A DNA stretch of 64,000 nucleotides, from the NCBI GenBank assembly GCA_000165345.1, contig CM000435.1:960001-1024000 (forward strand), read 5' to 3'. The position numbers were made by a program, and so were the translations under genes. Positions 29,001-37,723 of this stretch are shown here, in pieces (position 1 is the first letter of the stretch; every line of letters begins with the position of its first letter). The notes below the pieces were generated by a model that ran no database searches, had not been told where the DNA came from, and saw only the letters and a list, made by a program, of their open reading frames with translations.

Positions 29001-31064
29001 TAATATTGCTTCCATAATTGATAGACTTTGAAGTTGATCAACTACCATATCAGCTTCAATTAGATTTGGTACCTTCTTTTCGTTTGCTTTGACACATCTA
29101 ATAAATTGAGCATTTGTAGCTTTTAATGTATCAAGTAGATGTCCTATAGAAACCCTAAAAATACTTGCAAGGAACTTCCCCTTAAGCTTATTAGAATTAA
29201 GAATTTCAACTTTCTCAAAACAACCTTTAATAATTGAATTCTTGGATTCTTTAAAAAGTTTGATAATTTCTGGCCTAATTCTATGTTTATTTTTCAGAAC
29301 AAACTCTCTGGTAGTGTACTCTACTGTAGTTGCTGTATGTTCAATGATGAATTTGTCTGGGACATTTCCTTTTGGAAGTTTATATCCACTTTTCTTTCCA
29401 CAATTCTTATGAGCACTATTAGTGAAACTCTCATAAGTACCATTTGATACTAAACAAGACTCTTCAAGTAAATCAAAGATACCTCCTTTACCATCAAATA
29501 GCTGAACAAGTGAGGAATTATCTTCATATGTGATATTATCATGAGAAATTGACTCTTTTTCATATTCTTGTAATTCTGCCTGAAAAACTGAAGAAATGAA
29601 GAATTGTTGTAGTTTTTCATTTGCAAAGTTAATTAGAAACTGCTCAAAACCATTAACTTTAAATACTTCAAAACCATAAATATCCAAAATTCCAATCCAT
29701 TGTCTTTTATTATCATCAAATTCAATTGCCTTATTAACTAGATCTATCAAGTACTCGAAACATTTTAAATAGACTTCCTTTCCACAACTTTCTATTTGTT
29801 CTTGTGCCTTGGCCTTATTTAATGCTGAAACAACGACGTTGCCTCTGATTTCAATACTACTTGTAAGTAAAAGCTCTTCAAATTGTTTAGAATCGATTCC
29901 CCAGAGTTCTGAGACATCCGATAATATACCTTGACTTTCAATACAAGCAGCATCTTCGATTCCTCTGGATTCGTGTTCTCCAAGTTCAAAGTTTCCCATT
30001 AGTAAAATAGCAGAAAATAGAGAGATGAGTTGATCAATTGCTTCTTGGTTTGGTAAGATTCTTTCCAACTGAGGAAATACACAATTTTTAAACTCTTTAA
30101 TGTCATCAATGTTTTGAACATCATAACAATTCGATACATTCAAATATTTATACCAGTCCATTCCACGTAATTTATATTTAGAAATGTCAGCTTGGGAAGT
30201 ATATGATTTAATTATTTGGTAGAAGATGTGATAAGATCTTTCATTTTCAATTTGGTGACCTATTCTACTGAGTTCCAACATATAACTTGAAATTGCACCT
30301 CCAACAATACCATTAGATCTTTCTAGACATAACTTGATAAATCTACCAAACCTACTGGAGTTATTATTCCTTAGTGTTTTTGCATTTCCTAAAGCTTCCA
30401 ATAGTGGGTTTGCTCCTAGGATGACTTCCTGGACCTTATTATCAGATCCCATTCCTGAAGAAGCAAAATAAGTCATGAGTTGTCTTGCAGTTTCAGTTTT
30501 TCCTGCTCCAGATTCTCCAGATACAATACATGACTGATTGATTTTTTGAGTATCCAGGAGCTGCATCGATCTCTGAGCAACAGCAAAAGTGTGAGGAGGA
30601 AGGTCACTTGGGAAGCCCATAGAATAATCAGCTCCTTTATAGAGTCTGATTTTTTCTGGACCATAGAGTCCTTCAATCATCTTAAAAGGGTTTACAGCAA
30701 CAAGTAATCTACCAGCATAAGAGTAGATTAAGTCCATACTGAATCTCTTGTTGATGACATCCAATACAGAGGCTTCACTCACGTGAGGTAATTTAGTTAG
30801 GTCATTGATTTGCATAGCATCAATTCCAACATTATAGTTAAAACACATATTAAAGTCAACATCTATTTCTCCTTCACCTTCAATACTAACATGTATAGTC
30901 TTTTCGCCAAAGCTTTTGATTATACCTACCTTATAATTGTGATTTATCCCATTTTCTGGACATTTAACCCAAACTGGAGTATCAATAAGAAGCTCATCAT
31001 TTCCTACCATGGAATACCTCCTTTTGAGCTCCATTTCCTTTTGAGGGTTATTTTTTTTAATCAT
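26082..31064 (-). CDS. Myosin heavy chain, apicomplexan class XIV MyoH-like: motor domain, multiple IQ motifs and C-terminal RCC1/ATS1 repeats (1660 aa)
   Basis: P-loop GESGAGKTE, switch region LDIYGFE and LEEA-like SH1 region. About 8 IQ motifs are present (IQRIYRGHRVRK, KLQSAWIHYKKKR, KIQRVWRYYYLRQ, KIQSVWRGYYVRK, IQSWWRGDRVRQ). The RCC1 blades are GGFHTVVLTCEGSLYSFG, CGVDHTLALSEVGSVYCWGANEYGQCG and AGAFHCVAVTIENEVLVWGRG. Confidence 0.85.
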   Translation of the reverse strand: MIKKNNPQKEMELKRRYSMVGNDELLIDTPVWVKCPENGINHNYKVGIIKSFGEKTIHVSIEGEGEIDVDFNMCFNYNVGIDAMQINDLTKLPHVSEASVLDVINKRFSMDLIYSYAGRLLVAVNPFKMIEGLYGPEKIRLYKGADYSMGFPSDLPPHTFAVAQRSMQLLDTQKINQSCIVSGESGAGKTETARQLMTYFASSGMGSDNKVQEVILGANPLLEALGNAKTLRNNNSSRFGRFIKLCLERSNGIVGGAISSYMLELSRIGHQIENERSYHIFYQIIKSYTSQADISKYKLRGMDWYKYLNVSNCYDVQNIDDIKEFKNCVFPQLERILPNQEAIDQLISLFSAILLMGNFELGEHESRGIEDAACIESQGILSDVSELWGIDSKQFEELLLTSSIEIRGNVVVSALNKAKAQEQIESCGKEVYLKCFEYLIDLVNKAIEFDDNKRQWIGILDIYGFEVFKVNGFEQFLINFANEKLQQFFISSVFQAELQEYEKESISHDNITYEDNSSLVQLFDGKGGIFDLLEESCLVSNGTYESFTNSAHKNCGKKSGYKLPKGNVPDKFIIEHTATTVEYTTREFVLKNKHRIRPEIIKLFKESKNSIIKGCFEKVEILNSNKLKGKFLASIFRVSIGHLLDTLKATNAQFIRCVKANEKKVPNLIEADMVVDQLQSLSIMEAILLVQKGYAYRETFENFMKENSMIMKLMGQTISSGSDLKQQCRQAMNTMKIPETEWQIGNTKIFIKKDGWIAVERFFRSVTKSLAPLAETLREIFRLSKLRKQLKEFSVSLIRCQSLVRMYILNKEGVAKNRLLNYLVGVSLIMNLPNAMRNYNRTIITIQRIYRGHRVRKEIGTALRRKAACKKFVSFVKLLVNVLKAKNTFLDILRRIKSEAAAKKLQSAWIHYKKKRLVILLRIYSIKQAKAIKIQRVWRYYYLRQIMIHYIRIATPARKIQSVWRGYYVRKTIQHSHFFEKIRIKLWKSEYVMKIQCLIKRYWILAHLDRLFWVADVLQPRLHSALTRLYWKNMLKSIKCIQSWWRGDRVRQIIREEKLFVLLMAEKVRTDFMTQSECQILVQWDLERRNKNRVVIGSKLEKSPKGLQIIQILVDVDTSREYPAGWMESITGLLRSGSSIQEVGIGGFHTVVLTCEGSLYSFGMNDKSQLGLGKPGSELLGRALIKPAESLNIQNKIKSISCGVDHTLALSEVGSVYCWGANEYGQCGCDATEYQISTPTLISLPADWKQTRITLARAGAFHCVAVTIENEVLVWGRGDDLGLEDVHDSLFIPMQLRSPAIKKLGRINSLSCGLGTTFMIGINGVVAVFGVAQNGILGLGKGVYSTKRPKILSNISRVSQISLGYNFALALTTNGEVYQWGQVPVWNEYLEKTLHKNFFTPKLVELSELKSHVVEIQSGWWHSVVRLKNNSIWSWTFVCEVAKELNEKVNENQTKQKSEKNVSEGAILKSINSRVEISKGEGLIPVLFKFDLAEDRCTKCIKVVSSPSMTVVMRGGKDHISREYIVQPYLLENFDKGQQGEVSSYDEDNYSDYNVMDNSLNLHAKHYGSTGSDLWGAVFSASDSMDIFEDLKYPALRNPDEFTNALYDTNQSIKKNSEEKIFGRQAKAVELDDFSSIKSGPVPISNSFQSSRKSRSSNLR

Positions 31065-31295
31065 CTTTAAAGCTCTTCAGGTCTTTTCTTTAGAATTCCG
31101 ATTACCTTGAATGGAGGGCAAATTTAAAATATAGGTATTGTCCACCTCTTATAGAAACTATCTAATAAATTTGAGCATACAGGAAATTAAATTCCTATTA
31201 AATCTACTAAAGGGAGATGATCATGAAGTGTTTCTTTTTTTTTTCTTGAAATTTAATCACTTTTGACCATTTTCTAGTGTGTGCATGAGCACAAC

Positions 31296-31313
31296 GTTGG
31301 CGCCAAATAAAAA
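31296..31313. promoter_or_regulatory. E2F-like GTTGGCGCCAAATAAAAA about 235 nt upstream of the myosin ATG
   Basis: Palindromic GGCGCC core. Confidence 0.45.
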
Positions 31314-31607
31314 TTATTTTTAAACAAAAAATAAAGGAACTTTAAAATTAAAGAATTTTAGATGAATTCTGGATTTTGTATGGGAAAAATAATAGTTACA
31401 ACAAACTTTTTTTGATGAATTTTTTATGTTTTCTTTAGTATTTCTGATATAATTGTATCTGACTAGAATTAGTAGAGCAGACTTATCCTCACTAAATGTA
31501 AAAGGAAACAAATCAAACGAGGTTAAGAAGTTTATATAGCTATTTCTACTTTGAATTTCTAAATTCAATTTAGGAACCATAAATCAATAGATTGTGGAGC
31601 GTTAAAC

Positions 31608-32503
31608 TTAATCATCCTTTATATCAAGTTCTGAATATTCTTCCTCAGCAATATTATCATACTCTTCCTCATCCTGGTAATCTCCATACCTTTCATTTCT
31701 ATTCAAATTTAAGTTTGAGTTGTTATTTTTAACAAAGTTTGTTGGATGTTCAAATAGAACTCCTTCTTGTGCAGCAGTATTGTTCCCCCTATACATTTGC
31801 TGAATTCCACCAGAGTATACTAACTCAGGTGGGACAATGGTCTTAAATACCTGGTTACAGTTTGGGCAAACTTCCATGTCTTCTTCTTTGTCAGAAAGAC
31901 AGGCTCCACATGCTCTTCTATTAATAATCCAATCAAAATCATTATCTTCTTCTAAGTCTTGAAGAGAAACATCATTTCCAATGCATACGCCATCAACAAA
32001 AATTTGGGGTAGTAAAACGGTCCCATCCGATTCTAATGGATCCATTTTTAAAAGTCCTTCATTTTTTAAATTATCAAATATTTCAGAGTCTCCCAAATCT
32101 ATTTAATAAAATATTATAATGCATAATTACTAGTTACAAGGTTATCTCACCAAGTTTAAAGAACATATTTTTGGCTTTTATTCTTTTAACTTGACGAGGT
32201 CAGAATAAACTTACTTGCAGCAATTGAGAAATCTCTATTTGCATCAATCTGATAGTATACGACTCCTTTCACATCAAGGAATTGCTTTGCTCTTAAAGAC
32301 CCATAAAAATGCCTTCTTATTCCGCTCAAAGAAGTGTGAATTAGTACAACCTACAACAGAAAAAAGAGTGCTTATTGTGTGTAAACCCTAAATGCAGGCT
32401 AAAATTTGCAATACATTTTTGCATAATTCATTCCTGCATCTTTTATATTACTTACCTCTGCAGGCGTAGCTTGTACATCTGATCCTATTCCTTTTTCGTA
32501 CAT
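31608..32503 (-). CDS. Three-exon gene: glutaredoxin-fold protein of SH3BGR/GRXCR type with a C-terminal CxxC...CxxC zinc-ribbon and an acidic tail. complement(join(31608..32098,32215..32350,32456..32503)).
   Basis: Exon 1 is ATG..GAG (MYEKGIGSDVQATPAE) followed by GTAAGT. Exon 2 encodes VVLIHTSLSGIRRHFYGSLRAKQFLDVKGVVYYQIDANRDFSIAA. It begins after ttttttctgttgtAG and ends GCA A|GTAAGT. Exon 3 begins after ttttattaaatAG and equals the track ORF 31608..32096, which contains LLPQIFVDGVCIGN and CGAC...CPNC. All phases fit (0, then 1). Introns are 105 and 116 nt. Confidence 0.55.
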
Positions 32504-32684
32504 TTTAAATGGCTGTGTAAATGAAACTTATTTGAGGTAAAGACAGAATATAACAGGCTTTGAATTTACTCTCTTTGTTCTGAGCTTCAAATTCTGTAAT
32601 TATCTAGAATTTCAATTTATAGACAATTTTACATTTCATATCTTTTTACTTGTAAATAGACTTATTTTCATGTCAAAATAACAT

Positions 32685-32708
32685 ACCGCCAAATATTGCC
32701 GCCGACAA
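32685..32708. promoter_or_regulatory. Paired CCGCCAAA / TTGCCGCCGAC boxes in the 473-bp divergent promoter between the GRX-like gene (32503, minus) and the RPB11-like gene (32977, plus). ATTTTGGCGGTAAGA lies at 32915-32929.
   Basis: ACCGCCAAATATTGCCGCCGACAA is the only GC-rich patch in a spacer that is about 85 percent AT. Confidence 0.45.
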
Positions 32709-32976
32709 TTGTAATATTTTTTAAATTATAGGTCAATTTCAATTGGTACTTAAAAAATAAAAGAAGAAAGTTTTGTTGGGAAATAACATACAATGAGTTT
32801 TTGAGTGTGTTTGATGTTATGAAATTGCAAATAATTTTTTGATACTTTTGTGTTCGTTTTTTAAAGTTTTGATCCGTGTTAATATTTAGAATAGTTTTTC
32901 TACAATGTTATGTAATTTTGGCGGTAAGATAGTGATGTAATTAAAATTTAGCTAGAATAATAAAAAAGAACAAAAC

Positions 32977-33467
32977 ATGGGGAAGTTCTTTACAGTTAAT
33001 AAACCTGATGTAAATCTACTTGATATTCCTGCTGGATCTGAGAAGTAAGTTTGAATTATACTAATATTGCTGACTTGTATAATTTGCTGACCAATTTCAG
33101 AGTACAGTGGAAAGTGGAATCTAGAGTTCCTTGTTGTGGTAGTTTTATGATAATGCTTGAAGATCATACACTTGGAAACCTAATTACAACGTAAGTTCAT
33201 TAGTTTTAATTTGTGAGGTTTAAACTGGTAATACTTATCTTAATATTTTCTCTATTCAGACAATTATTACGTGATCCAAATGTCATATTTGCAGGGTACA
33301 AAGTACCTCACCCATTAGAGCCTCTTGTGCAAATTAGAATACAAACAAGAGAAAACACTACTCCATTTGTTGCGATTCAAAATGCTATTAAATCGATCCA
33401 AATGGAGTCACAGGTAATATTGAATTCATTTAAAGATTCAATGAGAAACTATCCTATATACAAATAG
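32977..33467 (+). CDS. Three-exon gene: DNA-directed RNA polymerase subunit of the RPB11/AC19 (RpoL) family, about 120 aa. join(32977..33044,33101..33190,33260..33467).
   Basis: MGKFFTVNKPDVNLLDIPAGSE|K VQWKVESRVPCCGSFMIMLEDHTLGNLIT|T QLLRDPNVIFAGYKVPHPLEPLVQIRIQTRENTTPFVAIQNAIKSIQ... The donors are AA|GTAAGT (33045) and AC|GTAAGT (33191). The acceptors are tttcAG (33099-100) and tctattcAG (33258-59). Both introns are phase 2. The EDHTLGN and AGYKVPHPLE...IRIQT signatures define the family. The track shows only the last exon, as 33213..33467. Confidence 0.65.
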
Positions 33468-33571
33468 AGAATAATTGAATTAGACTATAGTCGTTATTAT
33501 TTAATCTATAATTCTTCTTTCCAATTGTTCTTTTGTTTCATATTTATATTTAGATAAATTACTAGCAATAA

Positions 33572-34313
33572 CTAACAACAGCTTGATGTTGATTGTTTCT
33601 GGTTATTACCTTTTGAAAGTTGGATCCCTACTGAAGTATTATTAGCAAAACATCCTAAAGTAATTTTGAAATTAGGAAATAAAGTTAGAAGGATTAATCC
33701 ATCAATCTTTGATAAACTTACCATTCATATCTAAATTTGATGAGTTATCTTTCATCTTTTGATTATATACTTCCTGCAATAAATGCTCAAAAATATGTTT
33801 AACATTACATCTTGTGACTGCAGATGCTTCCGAAAAGAATAAGTTATTTTCTTGGGCAAAGTTTGCAGCTATATCAAATGGGACTTCTCTTTTACTTGGG
33901 TCCTTCTCAACTAAATCCAATTTATTCCCTACAAGCATCACAACAATATCAGGTTCCGAATTCTGCTTAATGTCCTCCAGCCACTTTGAAGCATTCAGAA
34001 AGCTTGATTTACGAGTTATATCATACACCAATAATGCACCCACAGATCGCCGATAGTGTGCCCTTGTGATTGCTCTATATCGTTCCTGCCCTGCTGTATC
34101 CCATATCTGAGCTTTCACTGTTCCTCCAATTGAAAGAGGCACTGTTCTTGTAGCAAACTCAACTCCTATTGTTGGTTGTGGAGTTTTTGGCAGAGCATCT
34201 CTTGTATATCGTGATAATAAATGAGTTTTCCCAACTGTTGCATCTCCTACTAATATGATCTTATAAAGATGGTCATATTCATCTGGTGAAGAACCCATTG
34301 AGTGTTTTTTCAA
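33572..34313 (-). CDS. Rab11-family small GTPase with a 3' terminal exon supplying the C-terminal CC prenylation motif. complement(join(33572..33654,33722..34313)).
   Basis: G1 GDATVGKT, G3 WDTAGQE, G4 GNKLDL and the Rab11-like YRAITRAHYRRSVGALLVYDIT. The track ORF ends MNGKFIKD* with no cysteine. The sequence at that point is AAT G|GTAAGTTTATC, a perfect donor. A 67-nt intron ends tttcaaaattactttAG. The next exon reads in phase (G)CFANNTSVGIQLSKGNNQKQSTSSCC then TAG. The track start 34313 is TTG, so the true start may be the internal MGSS ATG. The E2F-like box AATTGGCGCCAAATCG lies about 105 nt upstream. Confidence 0.75.
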
Positions 34314-34412
34314 TCTACATAAACTTTGAATTTATAACTAATTATGGCCAATTGTATCCACCAACTTGTTTTGAAACCTATTTTTAAACTAAGAATTGAA
34401 TCCCACTCACGA

Positions 34413-34428
34413 ATTGGCGCCAAATCGT
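34413..34428. promoter_or_regulatory. E2F-like AATTGGCGCCAAATCG about 105 nt upstream of the Rab11-like gene
   Basis: Near-perfect palindrome TTGGCGCCAA. Confidence 0.45.
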
Positions 34429-34658
34429 GAAACAACCCTTTTTCAATAATACATTTTATATTTCTGCTAATGGAAAATAATATAAACACACAAACAATCT
34501 GACAAATAAATATTAAAAATAAAATAAGACATGATCAAAAAGTAGATAACTCAGCGACATTTTGGTCATTACTGAGATCGTTAAATTCGAATTAACCACT
34601 AATAGTGAGTTAGTTTTCGTTAGCTTACTTCTTATAACTTTGAATTCACTCTATTTCC

Positions 34659-35582
34659 TTAAAATCCACTACCGTAGTTGATCTTAGCTTGTGAAAAGTC
34701 CATTTCCGGATGAGCTGCCTTAAACTTTTCAAGAAGTTCATGCTGTTTTAAGTTATCGCTTGTAGGCAATCCCATCGCTTTTTGTCTCTGATCAAACATC
34801 ATCTTCTCCACTGTAGCTCTGGTTTCTGGATCTAAATCTGAAAGCTTTGAATTCTCTGGTACAATCTTGGTAGTATCTATTTCTTGGTCTCCCTTTATAA
34901 CACATGACCACCAATTAATATTTTCCTGCTTTTCTAGTACTATTTGAATAGTTTTCCCATCTATAATTGACCATAAACAGTCATCTGGCTTAACTTTTGA
35001 GTTTAGTTCACCATCTATAATTACTTCTCCTTTTACAACTACCTTCAATCTATTAGTTTTAATATTAATATTACAATCTCTTGACTTGATTCCTGGAATA
35101 GTGTCAATAAGTACCTCCACAGTTCCTAGTGTCTGAGTCCAGGTATACTTATCTGTCGACCCTCCATTACCAGGAGGGGGAGCCTCTGTATCAGATTCTT
35201 CCTCATCGCCCAGCTTTTCATTGGTTTTTGTTGCTGGTTGACCTTTTTCATCGTCAGAAAAAACTTCTTCAATTTTCGGTACACTCTTTGTAGACATATT
35301 TTTCAGCTCTTCTTCTTCTCTCCTTTTCTGCTCTTCAATCTTCTTTTTTCGTTCTTCTTCTCTTTCCATCATTAACCTTTTTTCTTCTCTTCTTTTATCT
35401 GCAGAGAGAGCCTGATATTTCCTAAAGTATTTCATTAGAATTTTCTCTTCTTCTCCCTGGTTCATTGCTGTGAAAAAATCGGTTTTCCTCAGCAAGAAAC
35501 CAAATATTACATCCAAAAAATTCTCAATTCCATTTGCACTTTGAGCCAAGTTAATGAGAAGTGAATCAAATCTTTCATCCAT
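34659..35582 (-). CDS. NudC-family protein with a CS domain (307 aa)
   Basis: The N-terminal NudC-N region is LLRKTDFFTAM. There is a Glu/Lys/Arg coiled-coil linker. The CS/p23-like domain is YTWTQTLGTVEVLIDT...LKVVVKGEVIIDGEL...DCLWSI. The C-terminal NudC tail is DPETRATVEKMMFDQRQKAMGLPTSD. Confidence 0.75.
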   Translation of the reverse strand: MDERFDSLLINLAQSANGIENFLDVIFGFLLRKTDFFTAMNQGEEEKILMKYFRKYQALSADKRREEKRLMMEREEERKKKIEEQKRREEEELKNMSTKSVPKIEEVFSDDEKGQPATKTNEKLGDEEESDTEAPPPGNGGSTDKYTWTQTLGTVEVLIDTIPGIKSRDCNINIKTNRLKVVVKGEVIIDGELNSKVKPDDCLWSIIDGKTIQIVLEKQENINWWSCVIKGDQEIDTTKIVPENSKLSDLDPETRATVEKMMFDQRQKAMGLPTSDNLKQHELLEKFKAAHPEMDFSQAKINYGSGF

Positions 35583-35643
35583 CCTTGATAAAGCTTTTTA
35601 TATACTAAAAAATTAATTAGAAAATTATTCTACTGTTTTTGAC

Positions 35644-35656
35644 TTTGCCGCTAAAC
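35644..35656. promoter_or_regulatory. E2F-like TTTGCCGCTAAAC about 65 nt upstream of the NudC ATG
   Basis: Seen directly. Confidence 0.4.
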
Positions 35657-35904
35657 TTTTCCCAGCTCCCTAAGTTACAGCTCTTTCTACAGATATTTCT
35701 AATTATTACATAAGTTACTAGGTATTTAGCTCTATGAAGGGAGAAACTTAGGAAATCATTCAAGTTTCTTATTTGCTATCCAATTAGAATGCTACTAAAA
35801 AAACTAAAATTAACACTCCCAAGATGGTTTTTTTTTCCATCTTGAAACTAAATAAGAAAATAAGCCTATTGTTAATTTGCAATTTATTTGCAAAATTATT
35901 TATC

Positions 35905-35975
35905 ATTGCATGCATAAGAGTGATTTAGTTTGTAAACATACAATTTGCATGTAAATAAGATGTGCATGCAATAAT
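35905..35975. promoter_or_regulatory. Cluster of three TGCATG(C/T)A elements in the NudC/coronin divergent intergenic region
   Basis: attGCATGCAtaag, atttGCATGTaaat and gtGCATGCAat within 70 nt. GCATGC-type elements are known apicomplexan promoter motifs. Confidence 0.35.
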
Positions 35976-36331
35976 AAATATCATTAAGCCGGCTGAATAA
36001 ATTTCGTATCAGTGCTCTGGAAAAAAATAAATAATTTATAAGAACATGAATCATTTTGTCAAGTAAAAAAAAAAAAATGGACAAAGTCTGTGGTATGTGT
36101 CAAAATTTTACGTACAATAAAAATAATTATTACTATTGAAAAAAAATTAATAAAAACTTATGCATAATCATGTGGAAGGTCCACATTGGATCTTCAAATA
36201 TTAATAAAAATAATAAATAATAGTGCGGACGTGATAATAAATAATTTGAATGGGACCGAAAGAATTTAAGTGGAAATTGGGGAAAAAAAATAAAGAAATA
36301 AAGATATAAAGGGAAGAATTAAAAGAAAGAA

Positions 36332-37723
36332 ATGAGCAGAATTGTACATGACAGTAAATTCCGAAATTTGTATGGAGAGTGTATGCAAGATAGGTTTTCA
36401 GGCTTACATATTGTAACAAGCAGACATACAGTTGATGGATGTGGAATAGCAGCTTCAACAGAGTTTATAGCATTTCCAGCAGAGTGTAGCGGAGGAGGAA
36501 GTGTGGGTGTAATTGATAATAGTTCATTTGGATACAAACCAAATGTAGTATACTTTAAAGGCCACAAAGCAGCAGTTAGTGATGTGGAGTTTTCACCCTT
36601 TTACTCTTGTTTGTTAGTTAGTGCATCTCAAGATAAGACAATAAAGTTATGGGAAATTCCAGAACACGCTGCACAAAAGAGTTTAAAAGATCCTTTGGCA
36701 GTATTTCGTGGACATACAAAGAAAGTCTCACTTGTTAAGTTTAACCCCTCAGCAGAGTGGATCTTGGCTTCAGCTAGTAGAGATAATACAATTAAGATCT
36801 GGAACTGTGAGACAGTTCAAGATGAAATTAATATTGGATTACCAGGTTTACCAACATCGATCAAATGGAGTTATGATGGTAGTCTTTTAGCTGTTTCTTG
36901 TATGGACAAAGTTACCAGAATAATAGACCCAAGAAGTGAAAGAATTACATATCAGTGGCAAGCTCATAATGGAAGCAGAAAGAGTAGATGCGAATGGATG
37001 GGAGGCACAATGGGAAATCCAAATTGGCTATTAACAACAGGTTTTAGCGATAAAGGTGAGAGGCAGATTGGAGTTTGGGATGTAAGATATTTGGATAAGA
37101 GTGTTGGGGTGGAGTTTGTGGATATTGAACAACCATCGTTAATTCCATTCTGGGATGAAGGTACTGGACTATTTTATTTGGCAGGTAAAGGAGATACAAA
37201 TATTAAGGTTTTTGAATATAGTAAGACTGATGGCTGTGTAAGAAGGCTGGAAGAATATAGATCAGTAAATTCTCTCAAAGGTTATTGCTTGACCCCAAAG
37301 CAAAATGTCGAAGTAATGAAGTGCGAGATTGATCGAATTCTTAGATTAGAGTCAGGCGGTGTAATTCAGCCTGTTTCATTTATTGTGCCAAGAAAGACGA
37401 ATGAATTTTATTCCGATTTGTATCCCGATGCCATTGGAAATGAAGCCGCAATGGGTCCAGAGGAATGGATTAGTGGCCATACTGGTGAACCAATGAGAAT
37501 GTCTTTAAGACCAGATATTGTTCAAACGCAGAGCAATATGTTCAAGAGAATGAGATCTGTTGTTAAGAATGCAAGAGTAATATTAAAGAAAGATTTAGCC
37601 AAGGCAGAGATGCAATTAAGTACAATGCAGGATGAATTGTATTCTATAGAGTCACTCAAATATCAGTTAAAAGAGAAAGAAAATGAGATTGCTCAATTAA
37701 AAGCAAAGACTTCATTAGTTTAA
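36332..37723 (+). CDS. Coronin (WD40 actin-binding protein with a C-terminal coiled coil), 463 aa
   Basis: N-terminal coronin signature MSRIVHDSKFRNLYGE. WD repeats GHKAAVSDVEFSPF...SASQDKTIKLWEI and GHTKKVSLVKFNP...SASRDNTIKIWN. C-terminal heptad region LSTMQDELYSIESLKYQLKEKENEIAQLKAK. Confidence 0.85.
   Translation: MSRIVHDSKFRNLYGECMQDRFSGLHIVTSRHTVDGCGIAASTEFIAFPAECSGGGSVGVIDNSSFGYKPNVVYFKGHKAAVSDVEFSPFYSCLLVSASQDKTIKLWEIPEHAAQKSLKDPLAVFRGHTKKVSLVKFNPSAEWILASASRDNTIKIWNCETVQDEINIGLPGLPTSIKWSYDGSLLAVSCMDKVTRIIDPRSERITYQWQAHNGSRKSRCEWMGGTMGNPNWLLTTGFSDKGERQIGVWDVRYLDKSVGVEFVDIEQPSLIPFWDEGTGLFYLAGKGDTNIKVFEYSKTDGCVRRLEEYRSVNSLKGYCLTPKQNVEVMKCEIDRILRLESGGVIQPVSFIVPRKTNEFYSDLYPDAIGNEAAMGPEEWISGHTGEPMRMSLRPDIVQTQSNMFKRMRSVVKNARVILKKDLAKAEMQLSTMQDELYSIESLKYQLKEKENEIAQLKAKTSLV

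Follow-up and report, generated by a model that had tools for sequence, protein, structure and literature searches.

The Rab11B gene of Cryptosporidium parvum, located on chromosome 7, very probably consists of two exons separated by a 67-nt phase-1 GT-AG intron in the hypervariable tail, whose splicing yields the CC prenylation motif. The window, which is the whole stretch of DNA that was analysed (64,000 nt), is identical from 30572 to 37298 to positions 1031692-1038418 of CP141124.1 (GCA_035232765.1; 100% identity over 6,727 nt). In that record the gene spans 727 nt and has a product of 219 aa; the span equals a CDS of 660 nt plus the 67-nt intron. The window thus comes from C. parvum chromosome 7, and the gene model of the preliminary description of the window coincides with the current annotation. 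The two-exon model is already known: it is found in the current annotations of C. parvum, C. hominis, C. tyzzeri and C. ubiquitum, and also in those of C. felis, C. canis and C. serpentis. The terminal micro-exon, described at first as hidden, is therefore not so, as several annotations already include it, and the scientific weight of the finding is small because the correct model is already public. The micro-exon could nevertheless be recovered correctly by a reader from the raw sequence alone. The features of the gene are as follows:

33722..34298, minus strand: exon 1 of Rab11B (577 nt), with the ATG, codons 1-192 and base 1 of codon 193; it contains the whole GTPase domain
33655..33721, minus strand: predicted spliceosomal intron (67 nt, phase 1, GTAAGTTT...ACTTTAG, 24% G+C)
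33716..33721, minus strand: 5' splice donor GTAAGT, as read from the sequence
33702..33704, minus strand: TGA within the intron, which stops the unspliced ORF (...NGKFIKD-stop) six codons past the GTAAGT donor
33684..33688, minus strand: candidate branch point CTAAC, proposed from sequence only; the branch A would lie some 30 nt before the acceptor
33572..33654, minus strand: exon 2 (83 nt with its TAG stop), with the remainder of the hypervariable tail, (G)CFANNTSVGIQLSKGNNQKQSTSSCC
33575..33580, minus strand: TGT TGT, the C-terminal di-cysteine and putative double geranylgeranylation site

The ORF reported by the program (33702..34313, minus strand) is 203 aa long, begins with a TTG start of the bacterial table and ends in ...NLDMNGKFIKD-stop with no C-terminal cysteine, as had been pointed out in the preliminary description. 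The first ATG is at 34298, and the ORF-only product is a protein of 198 aa with the N-terminus MGSSPDEYDH.... At the exon/intron boundary the DNA reads AAT G followed by GTAAGTTTATC, and the donor that had been placed after AAT G is present as GTAAGT at 33721..33716. The proposed 67-nt intron with a pyrimidine-rich end runs exactly from 33721 to 33655; its 3' end is TTACTTTAG, and pyrimidines make up about 20 of the final 30 nt. It has a GT donor and an AG acceptor and the frame is open after its excision, as in spliceosomal GT-AG introns. The G+C content of the intron (0.24, vs 0.37 for exon 1 and 0.34 for exon 2) agrees with the published mean of 22% for C. parvum introns (PMC4637869).

Removal of the intron leads in frame into G/GA TGT TTT..., and the spliced product continues as GCFANNTSVGIQLSKGNNQKQSTSSCC up to the TAG stop codon at 33574..33572. 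The in-phase downstream exon (33654..33572) ends in ...SSCC-stop, in line with the double-cysteine end that had been proposed; it supplies the last 27 residues of the 219-aa product (C-terminus ...QSTSSCC-stop), the terminal Cys-Cys among them. The C-terminal cysteines characteristic of Rabs are present solely once the 67-nt intron is removed. As a gauge of chance, in all six frames of the whole window Cys-Cys directly precedes only 10 of the 8,103 stop codons (0.12%). Concerning other readings of the DNA, the sole other AG within the intron (intron positions 14-15) was rejected as an acceptor because it is too near the donor, and a ciliate-type code in which TAG is not a stop was set aside, as the window is C. 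parvum and its long ORFs are closed by standard stops.

For the comparison across species, each deposited protein was mapped exactly onto its own DNA at the orthologous locus. The position of the intron in each species is as follows:

window and L001, C. parvum: intron of 67 nt, phase 1, after residue 192
L003, unverified species with 94% nucleotide identity to the window: intron of 65 nt, phase 1, after residue 192
L011, C. ubiquitum: intron of 66 nt, phase 1, after residue 192
L010, C. felis: intron of 47 nt, phase 1, after residue 192
L005, C. serpentis: intron of 68 nt, phase 1, after residue 192
L004, C. xiaoi: interval of 54 nt at the same codon (GTAAGTTC...TTATACAG); the deposited model is colinear (236 aa)

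The exon mapping reproduces the deposited 219-aa C. parvum protein only if 33655..33721 is removed. In all six species the intron sits at the same codon and in the same phase, and its length varies freely, as is expected of a true intron: it ranges from 47 to 68 nt, its length modulo 3 is not constant, and its G+C content is 0.13-0.32. All six species have GTAAG at the donor and AG at the acceptor, and the candidate branch point is partly conserved in the alignment (CTAAC, CTAAA or GTAAAC). Exon 1 is 577 nt long in all six species; exon 2 is 83, 80 or 77 nt long, so that the differences are multiples of 3, and its peptide is conserved. In four of the five species comparisons nucleotide conservation is lower in the intron than in both exons, and the spliced tails end in xCC-stop in 6/6 species. 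The same arrangement in five other Cryptosporidium species shows that it is not due to chance.

The deposited C. xiaoi protein (L004:1501-2211, JAWDEY010000012.1; 236-aa 'Rablib') contains 17 extra residues, KFNSPISFCRNPLIIYT, which precede GCFTNAS...GCC. These match the 54-nt interval at the same codon, so the model reads in frame through the same intron, which in this species happens to keep the frame and to contain no stop. The 236-aa model probably reflects faulty annotation, though not of the type seen in the ORF-only models. The Logan entries in the protein cluster, P0132-P0134, are likewise genomic read-throughs without splicing, from other Cryptosporidium species.

The original annotations of C. 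parvum Iowa II (XP_001388407.1) and C. hominis TU502 (XP_667916.1, 199 aa) treated the gene as intronless, which would make the 198-aa product ending in ...KFIKD a real, non-prenylatable Rab11B. Such a protein had been called remarkable in itself; it would have a precedent in the Apicomplexa, as Plasmodium Rab5B has no prenylation motif (PMC3317772). The absence of the motif alone is thus no proof of mis-annotation, and it is the comparative data that settle the matter. The read-through tails are mutually unrelated (KFIKD, KFIKN, KFIKNC, KLV and KISIIYFLFF, each followed by a stop) and are not conserved even among close species, whereas the downstream exon is conserved in frame, changes in length by multiples of 3 only and always ends in CC. 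No orthologue has a well-supported protein that ends in ...KFIKD; such an end would have spoken against the two-exon gene. The exon-2 peptide motif G/A-[IVM]-Q-L aligns with the Rab11B tails of Toxoplasma, Plasmodium, Vitrella and Perkinsus and of transcriptome-derived sequences, and the aligned tails from outside Cryptosporidium all carry terminal cysteines (in the forms CC, CCx and CxC). Also, the 198-aa record is flagged 'partial', and its model was replaced by later evidence-based annotations. Based on these data, an intronless Rab11B is extremely improbable.

Concerning the deposited proteins, the best match in a search of 5.8 billion proteins is the 219-aa 'Rablib [Cryptosporidium parvum]'; the two-exon model that had been proposed gives a protein 100% identical to it over the full length. 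Next come C. serpentis 'putative Rab11b' (85%), C. xiaoi (82%) and T. gondii Rab11b (67%), followed by the Rab11B proteins of Plasmodium and Perkinsus. In an exact-sequence look-up the spliced 219-aa sequence (P0001) was found as QOY40763.1, KAK9171707.1 and KAL5367758.1, and POM82669.1 (C. meleagridis) is also recorded under it; the QOY accessions we take to be those of the IOWA-ATCC project. C. hominis, C. tyzzeri, C. ubiquitum, C. canis and C. meleagridis also have deposited orthologues of 219 aa.

The ORF-only form is deposited as well. The expectation that annotation from ORFs alone would produce a wrong model is borne out by the 198-aa 'Rablib, partial [C. parvum Iowa II]' (EAZ51600.1 / XP_001388407.1), and further records without the CC are those of C. 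hominis TU502 mentioned above, chipmunk genotype I (XP_067200414.1, 198 aa) and C. ryanae (XP_067196745.1, 200 aa). In a C. canis model of 281 aa (KAJ1614127.1) the reading frame continues across the intron, passes exon 2 in the wrong frame and enters the 3' region. The practical value of the analysis is therefore an annotation warning, as ORF-only and in-frame read-through models persist in public records; the spliced model is advised for tagging and knock-in designs of Cryptosporidium Rab11B and for the scoring of prenylation motifs in apicomplexan Rabs. The name 'Rablib', which is spread over many records, looks like a typographical corruption of 'Rab11b', and a literature search on it returned only unrelated Drosophila papers.

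Both forms of the protein might also be made, regulated retention of the intron giving a soluble, non-prenylatable Rab11B beside the prenylated one. Short introns in compact genomes are often retained in part. An in-frame stop lies 3-12 codons past the donor in 5/6 species, so that retention would yield a clean GTPase without the tail. The early stop is not conserved, however: the introns of C. xiaoi and of the P0132 species are in frame and stop-free and read through to the CC, which would remain on the retained form, and an AT-rich intron of 47-68 nt is expected to hold stops by chance. We regard the production of both forms as very unlikely. More doubtful still is a regulatory use of the intron as a Cryptosporidium-specific gain, in which stage-specific retention would act as a switch and the soluble Rab11B would titrate effectors or GEFs.

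The two-exon gene, the reading preferred here, was also followed at the level of transcripts and annotations. An exact scan of metagenome and metatranscriptome contigs gave 0 matches to the 35-nt spliced junction (AATTTAGATATGAATG joined to GATGTTTTGCTAATAATAC), and among the Logan (SRA-assembly) contigs there is none on record that encodes the contiguous 219-aa protein. That the terminal intron of Rab11B is spliced in vivo is suggested indirectly by the literature on C. parvum annotations, its sole source of support. The RNA-seq-guided reannotation of C. parvum in 2015 added 451 introns and brought the genes that contain introns from 4.3% to 10.8% of the total (PMC4637869); the gene is not mentioned in the supplements of that paper. 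In the IOWA-ATCC (CpIA) reannotation the introns are stated to be 100% supported by RNA-seq, and the annotations of C. hominis 30976 and C. tyzzeri UGA55 were made consistent with it (PMC8744675).

The spliced protein matches the Pfam Ras domain (PF00071, E=5e-52) with residues 13-178, which cover profile positions 1-161 of 162, and it contains the motifs of the Ras superfamily: GDATVGKT (P-loop), DTAGQ, NKLD and EASAV. The Rab family is characterised by the RabF motifs of Pereira-Leal and Seabra (IGVDF-, KLQIW-, RFRSIT-, YYRGA- and LVYDIT-like). Their counterparts in the sequence are IGVEF, KAQIW, RYRAIT, HYRRS and LVYDIT, and the best matches are all Rabs. Within the family the protein belongs to the Rab11 subfamily: the top 33 PDB matches are Rab11A/B, Rab25, Ypt31/32 and RABA1a (170-190 bits), and Rab14, Rab2 and Rab4 trail at about 150 bits or less.

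The best named protein matches are the Rab11b proteins of Toxoplasma, Neospora, Plasmodium and Perkinsus (310-331 bits). The preliminary description spoke of a Rab11-like GTPase, which holds for the subfamily; the protein is not a generic Rab11 but specifically Rab11B, with 67% identity to TgRab11B over the full length vs 49% to human Rab11A. Rab11B is distinguished by substitutions specific to alveolates in its P-loop and in switches I and II (PMC2912401). All sequences of the Rab11B alignment have the P-loop GDATVGKTHLLSRY and AHYRR, whereas Rab11A has GDSGVGKSNLLSRF and AYYRG, and the spliced protein has the VEKDPxxREV of the Rab11B type, a 4-residue insertion after NKLDL. By its matches, identities and motifs the encoded protein is assigned as Rab11B, the alveolate-specific paralogue.

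The relatives with solved structures that match best are human RAB11A (PDB 5fbl, 1oiv) and yeast Ypt31/32 (3cpj), with E values of about 1e-54. Rab11A and Ypt31/32 have in common with the C. parvum protein the N-terminal DEYD(Y/H)L(F/Y)K, GVEFATR, AQIWDTAGQERYRAIT and the C-terminal prenyl cysteines. Canonical Rab11A differs in its P-loop (GDSGVGKS) and switch II (AYYRG) and lacks the 4-residue insertion after NKxDL; its identity is only 49%. The C. parvum protein falls with the Rab11B proteins rather than with these. T. gondii Rab11B (ME49; P0006), 67% identical, has GDATVGKT, AHYRR and the LVEKDPxxR(E/D)V insertion in common with the C. parvum protein, and its tail likewise contains a G-V-(Q/R)-L motif and a C-terminal CC; the end of the protein is CCG in TgRab11B and CC in C. 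parvum. In the GTPase domain, Plasmodium Rab11B (P. vinckei P0023; P. falciparum MAL13P1.205) shows 74% identity to the C. parvum protein; it too has a CC end, with a tail that is longer than that of C. parvum and rich in Asn and Lys.

There is also a difference in the positions of the introns. Based on tblastn HSPs, the T. gondii Rab11B gene (L006) has no intron in the tail; its two introns interrupt the GTPase domain, one after ...VKAQ and the other before VPYE.... The Plasmodium gene (P. vinckei, L008) has four, all in the GTPase domain, two of them at the positions found in Toxoplasma; the common positions are phase 0, after ...GTVKAQ and before V[PT]YE. Cryptosporidium Rab11B lacks both common introns and has the single phase-1 intron in the tail. 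As to whether orthologues carry the terminal intron, a question already raised for this gene, the answer is positive for five other Cryptosporidium species and negative for the Rab11B genes of Toxoplasma and Plasmodium. The terminal intron is thus specific to Cryptosporidium relative to both lineages, and the differences among the three lineages amount to intron loss together with retention or gain within one small gene.

Prenylation and a cellular role of C. parvum Rab11B can be predicted from homology. Excision of the intron, which lies between codons 192 and 193, would drop the in-frame TGA and join the 83-nt terminal exon. By analogy with characterised Rabs, Rab escort protein would present Rab11B to GGTase-II, which would attach geranylgeranyl groups to both cysteines; from established Rab biology, the geranylgeranylated Rab11B would insert reversibly into membranes under the regulation of GDI and the GTP cycle. 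As another membrane anchor, N-myristoylation at the MG... start of the protein was considered and rejected, as Gly2 is not conserved (MS.. or MA.. in other species). Rab11B is alveolate-specific and is required for IMC biogenesis in T. gondii (Agop-Nersesian et al. 2010, PMC2912401). By orthology this role, shown only in that species, may extend to C. parvum. In the T. gondii study the tags were placed at the N-terminus, as lipid modification requires the C-terminal cysteines (PMC2912401).

Concerning the neighbouring genes, the gene at 31608..32503 (minus strand) is annotated in CP141124.1 with a 224-aa product that has no Pfam match; its span of 896 nt implies that introns account for about 221 nt. 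No open frame is restored by one GT-AG intron of this length, so the gene must have two or more. The convergent gene at 32977..33467 (plus strand), whose stop is 104 nt from that of Rab11B, encodes a 121-aa RPB11/AC19-like RNA polymerase subunit (PF13656, E=9e-27). It needs two introns, 33045-33100 (56 nt) and 33191-33259 (69 nt), which have GTAAGTT donors and 25-29% G+C; two other two-intron combinations keep the frame open but disrupt the domain. These introns are of the same type as that of Rab11B (GTAAGTT, short, low G+C), so the Rab11B intron is locally typical. The upstream neighbour (34659..35582, minus strand) is an intronless gene for a 307-aa NudC-like protein with Nudc_N and CS domains (precomputed annotation), with synteny preserved in every Cryptosporidium locus fetched.
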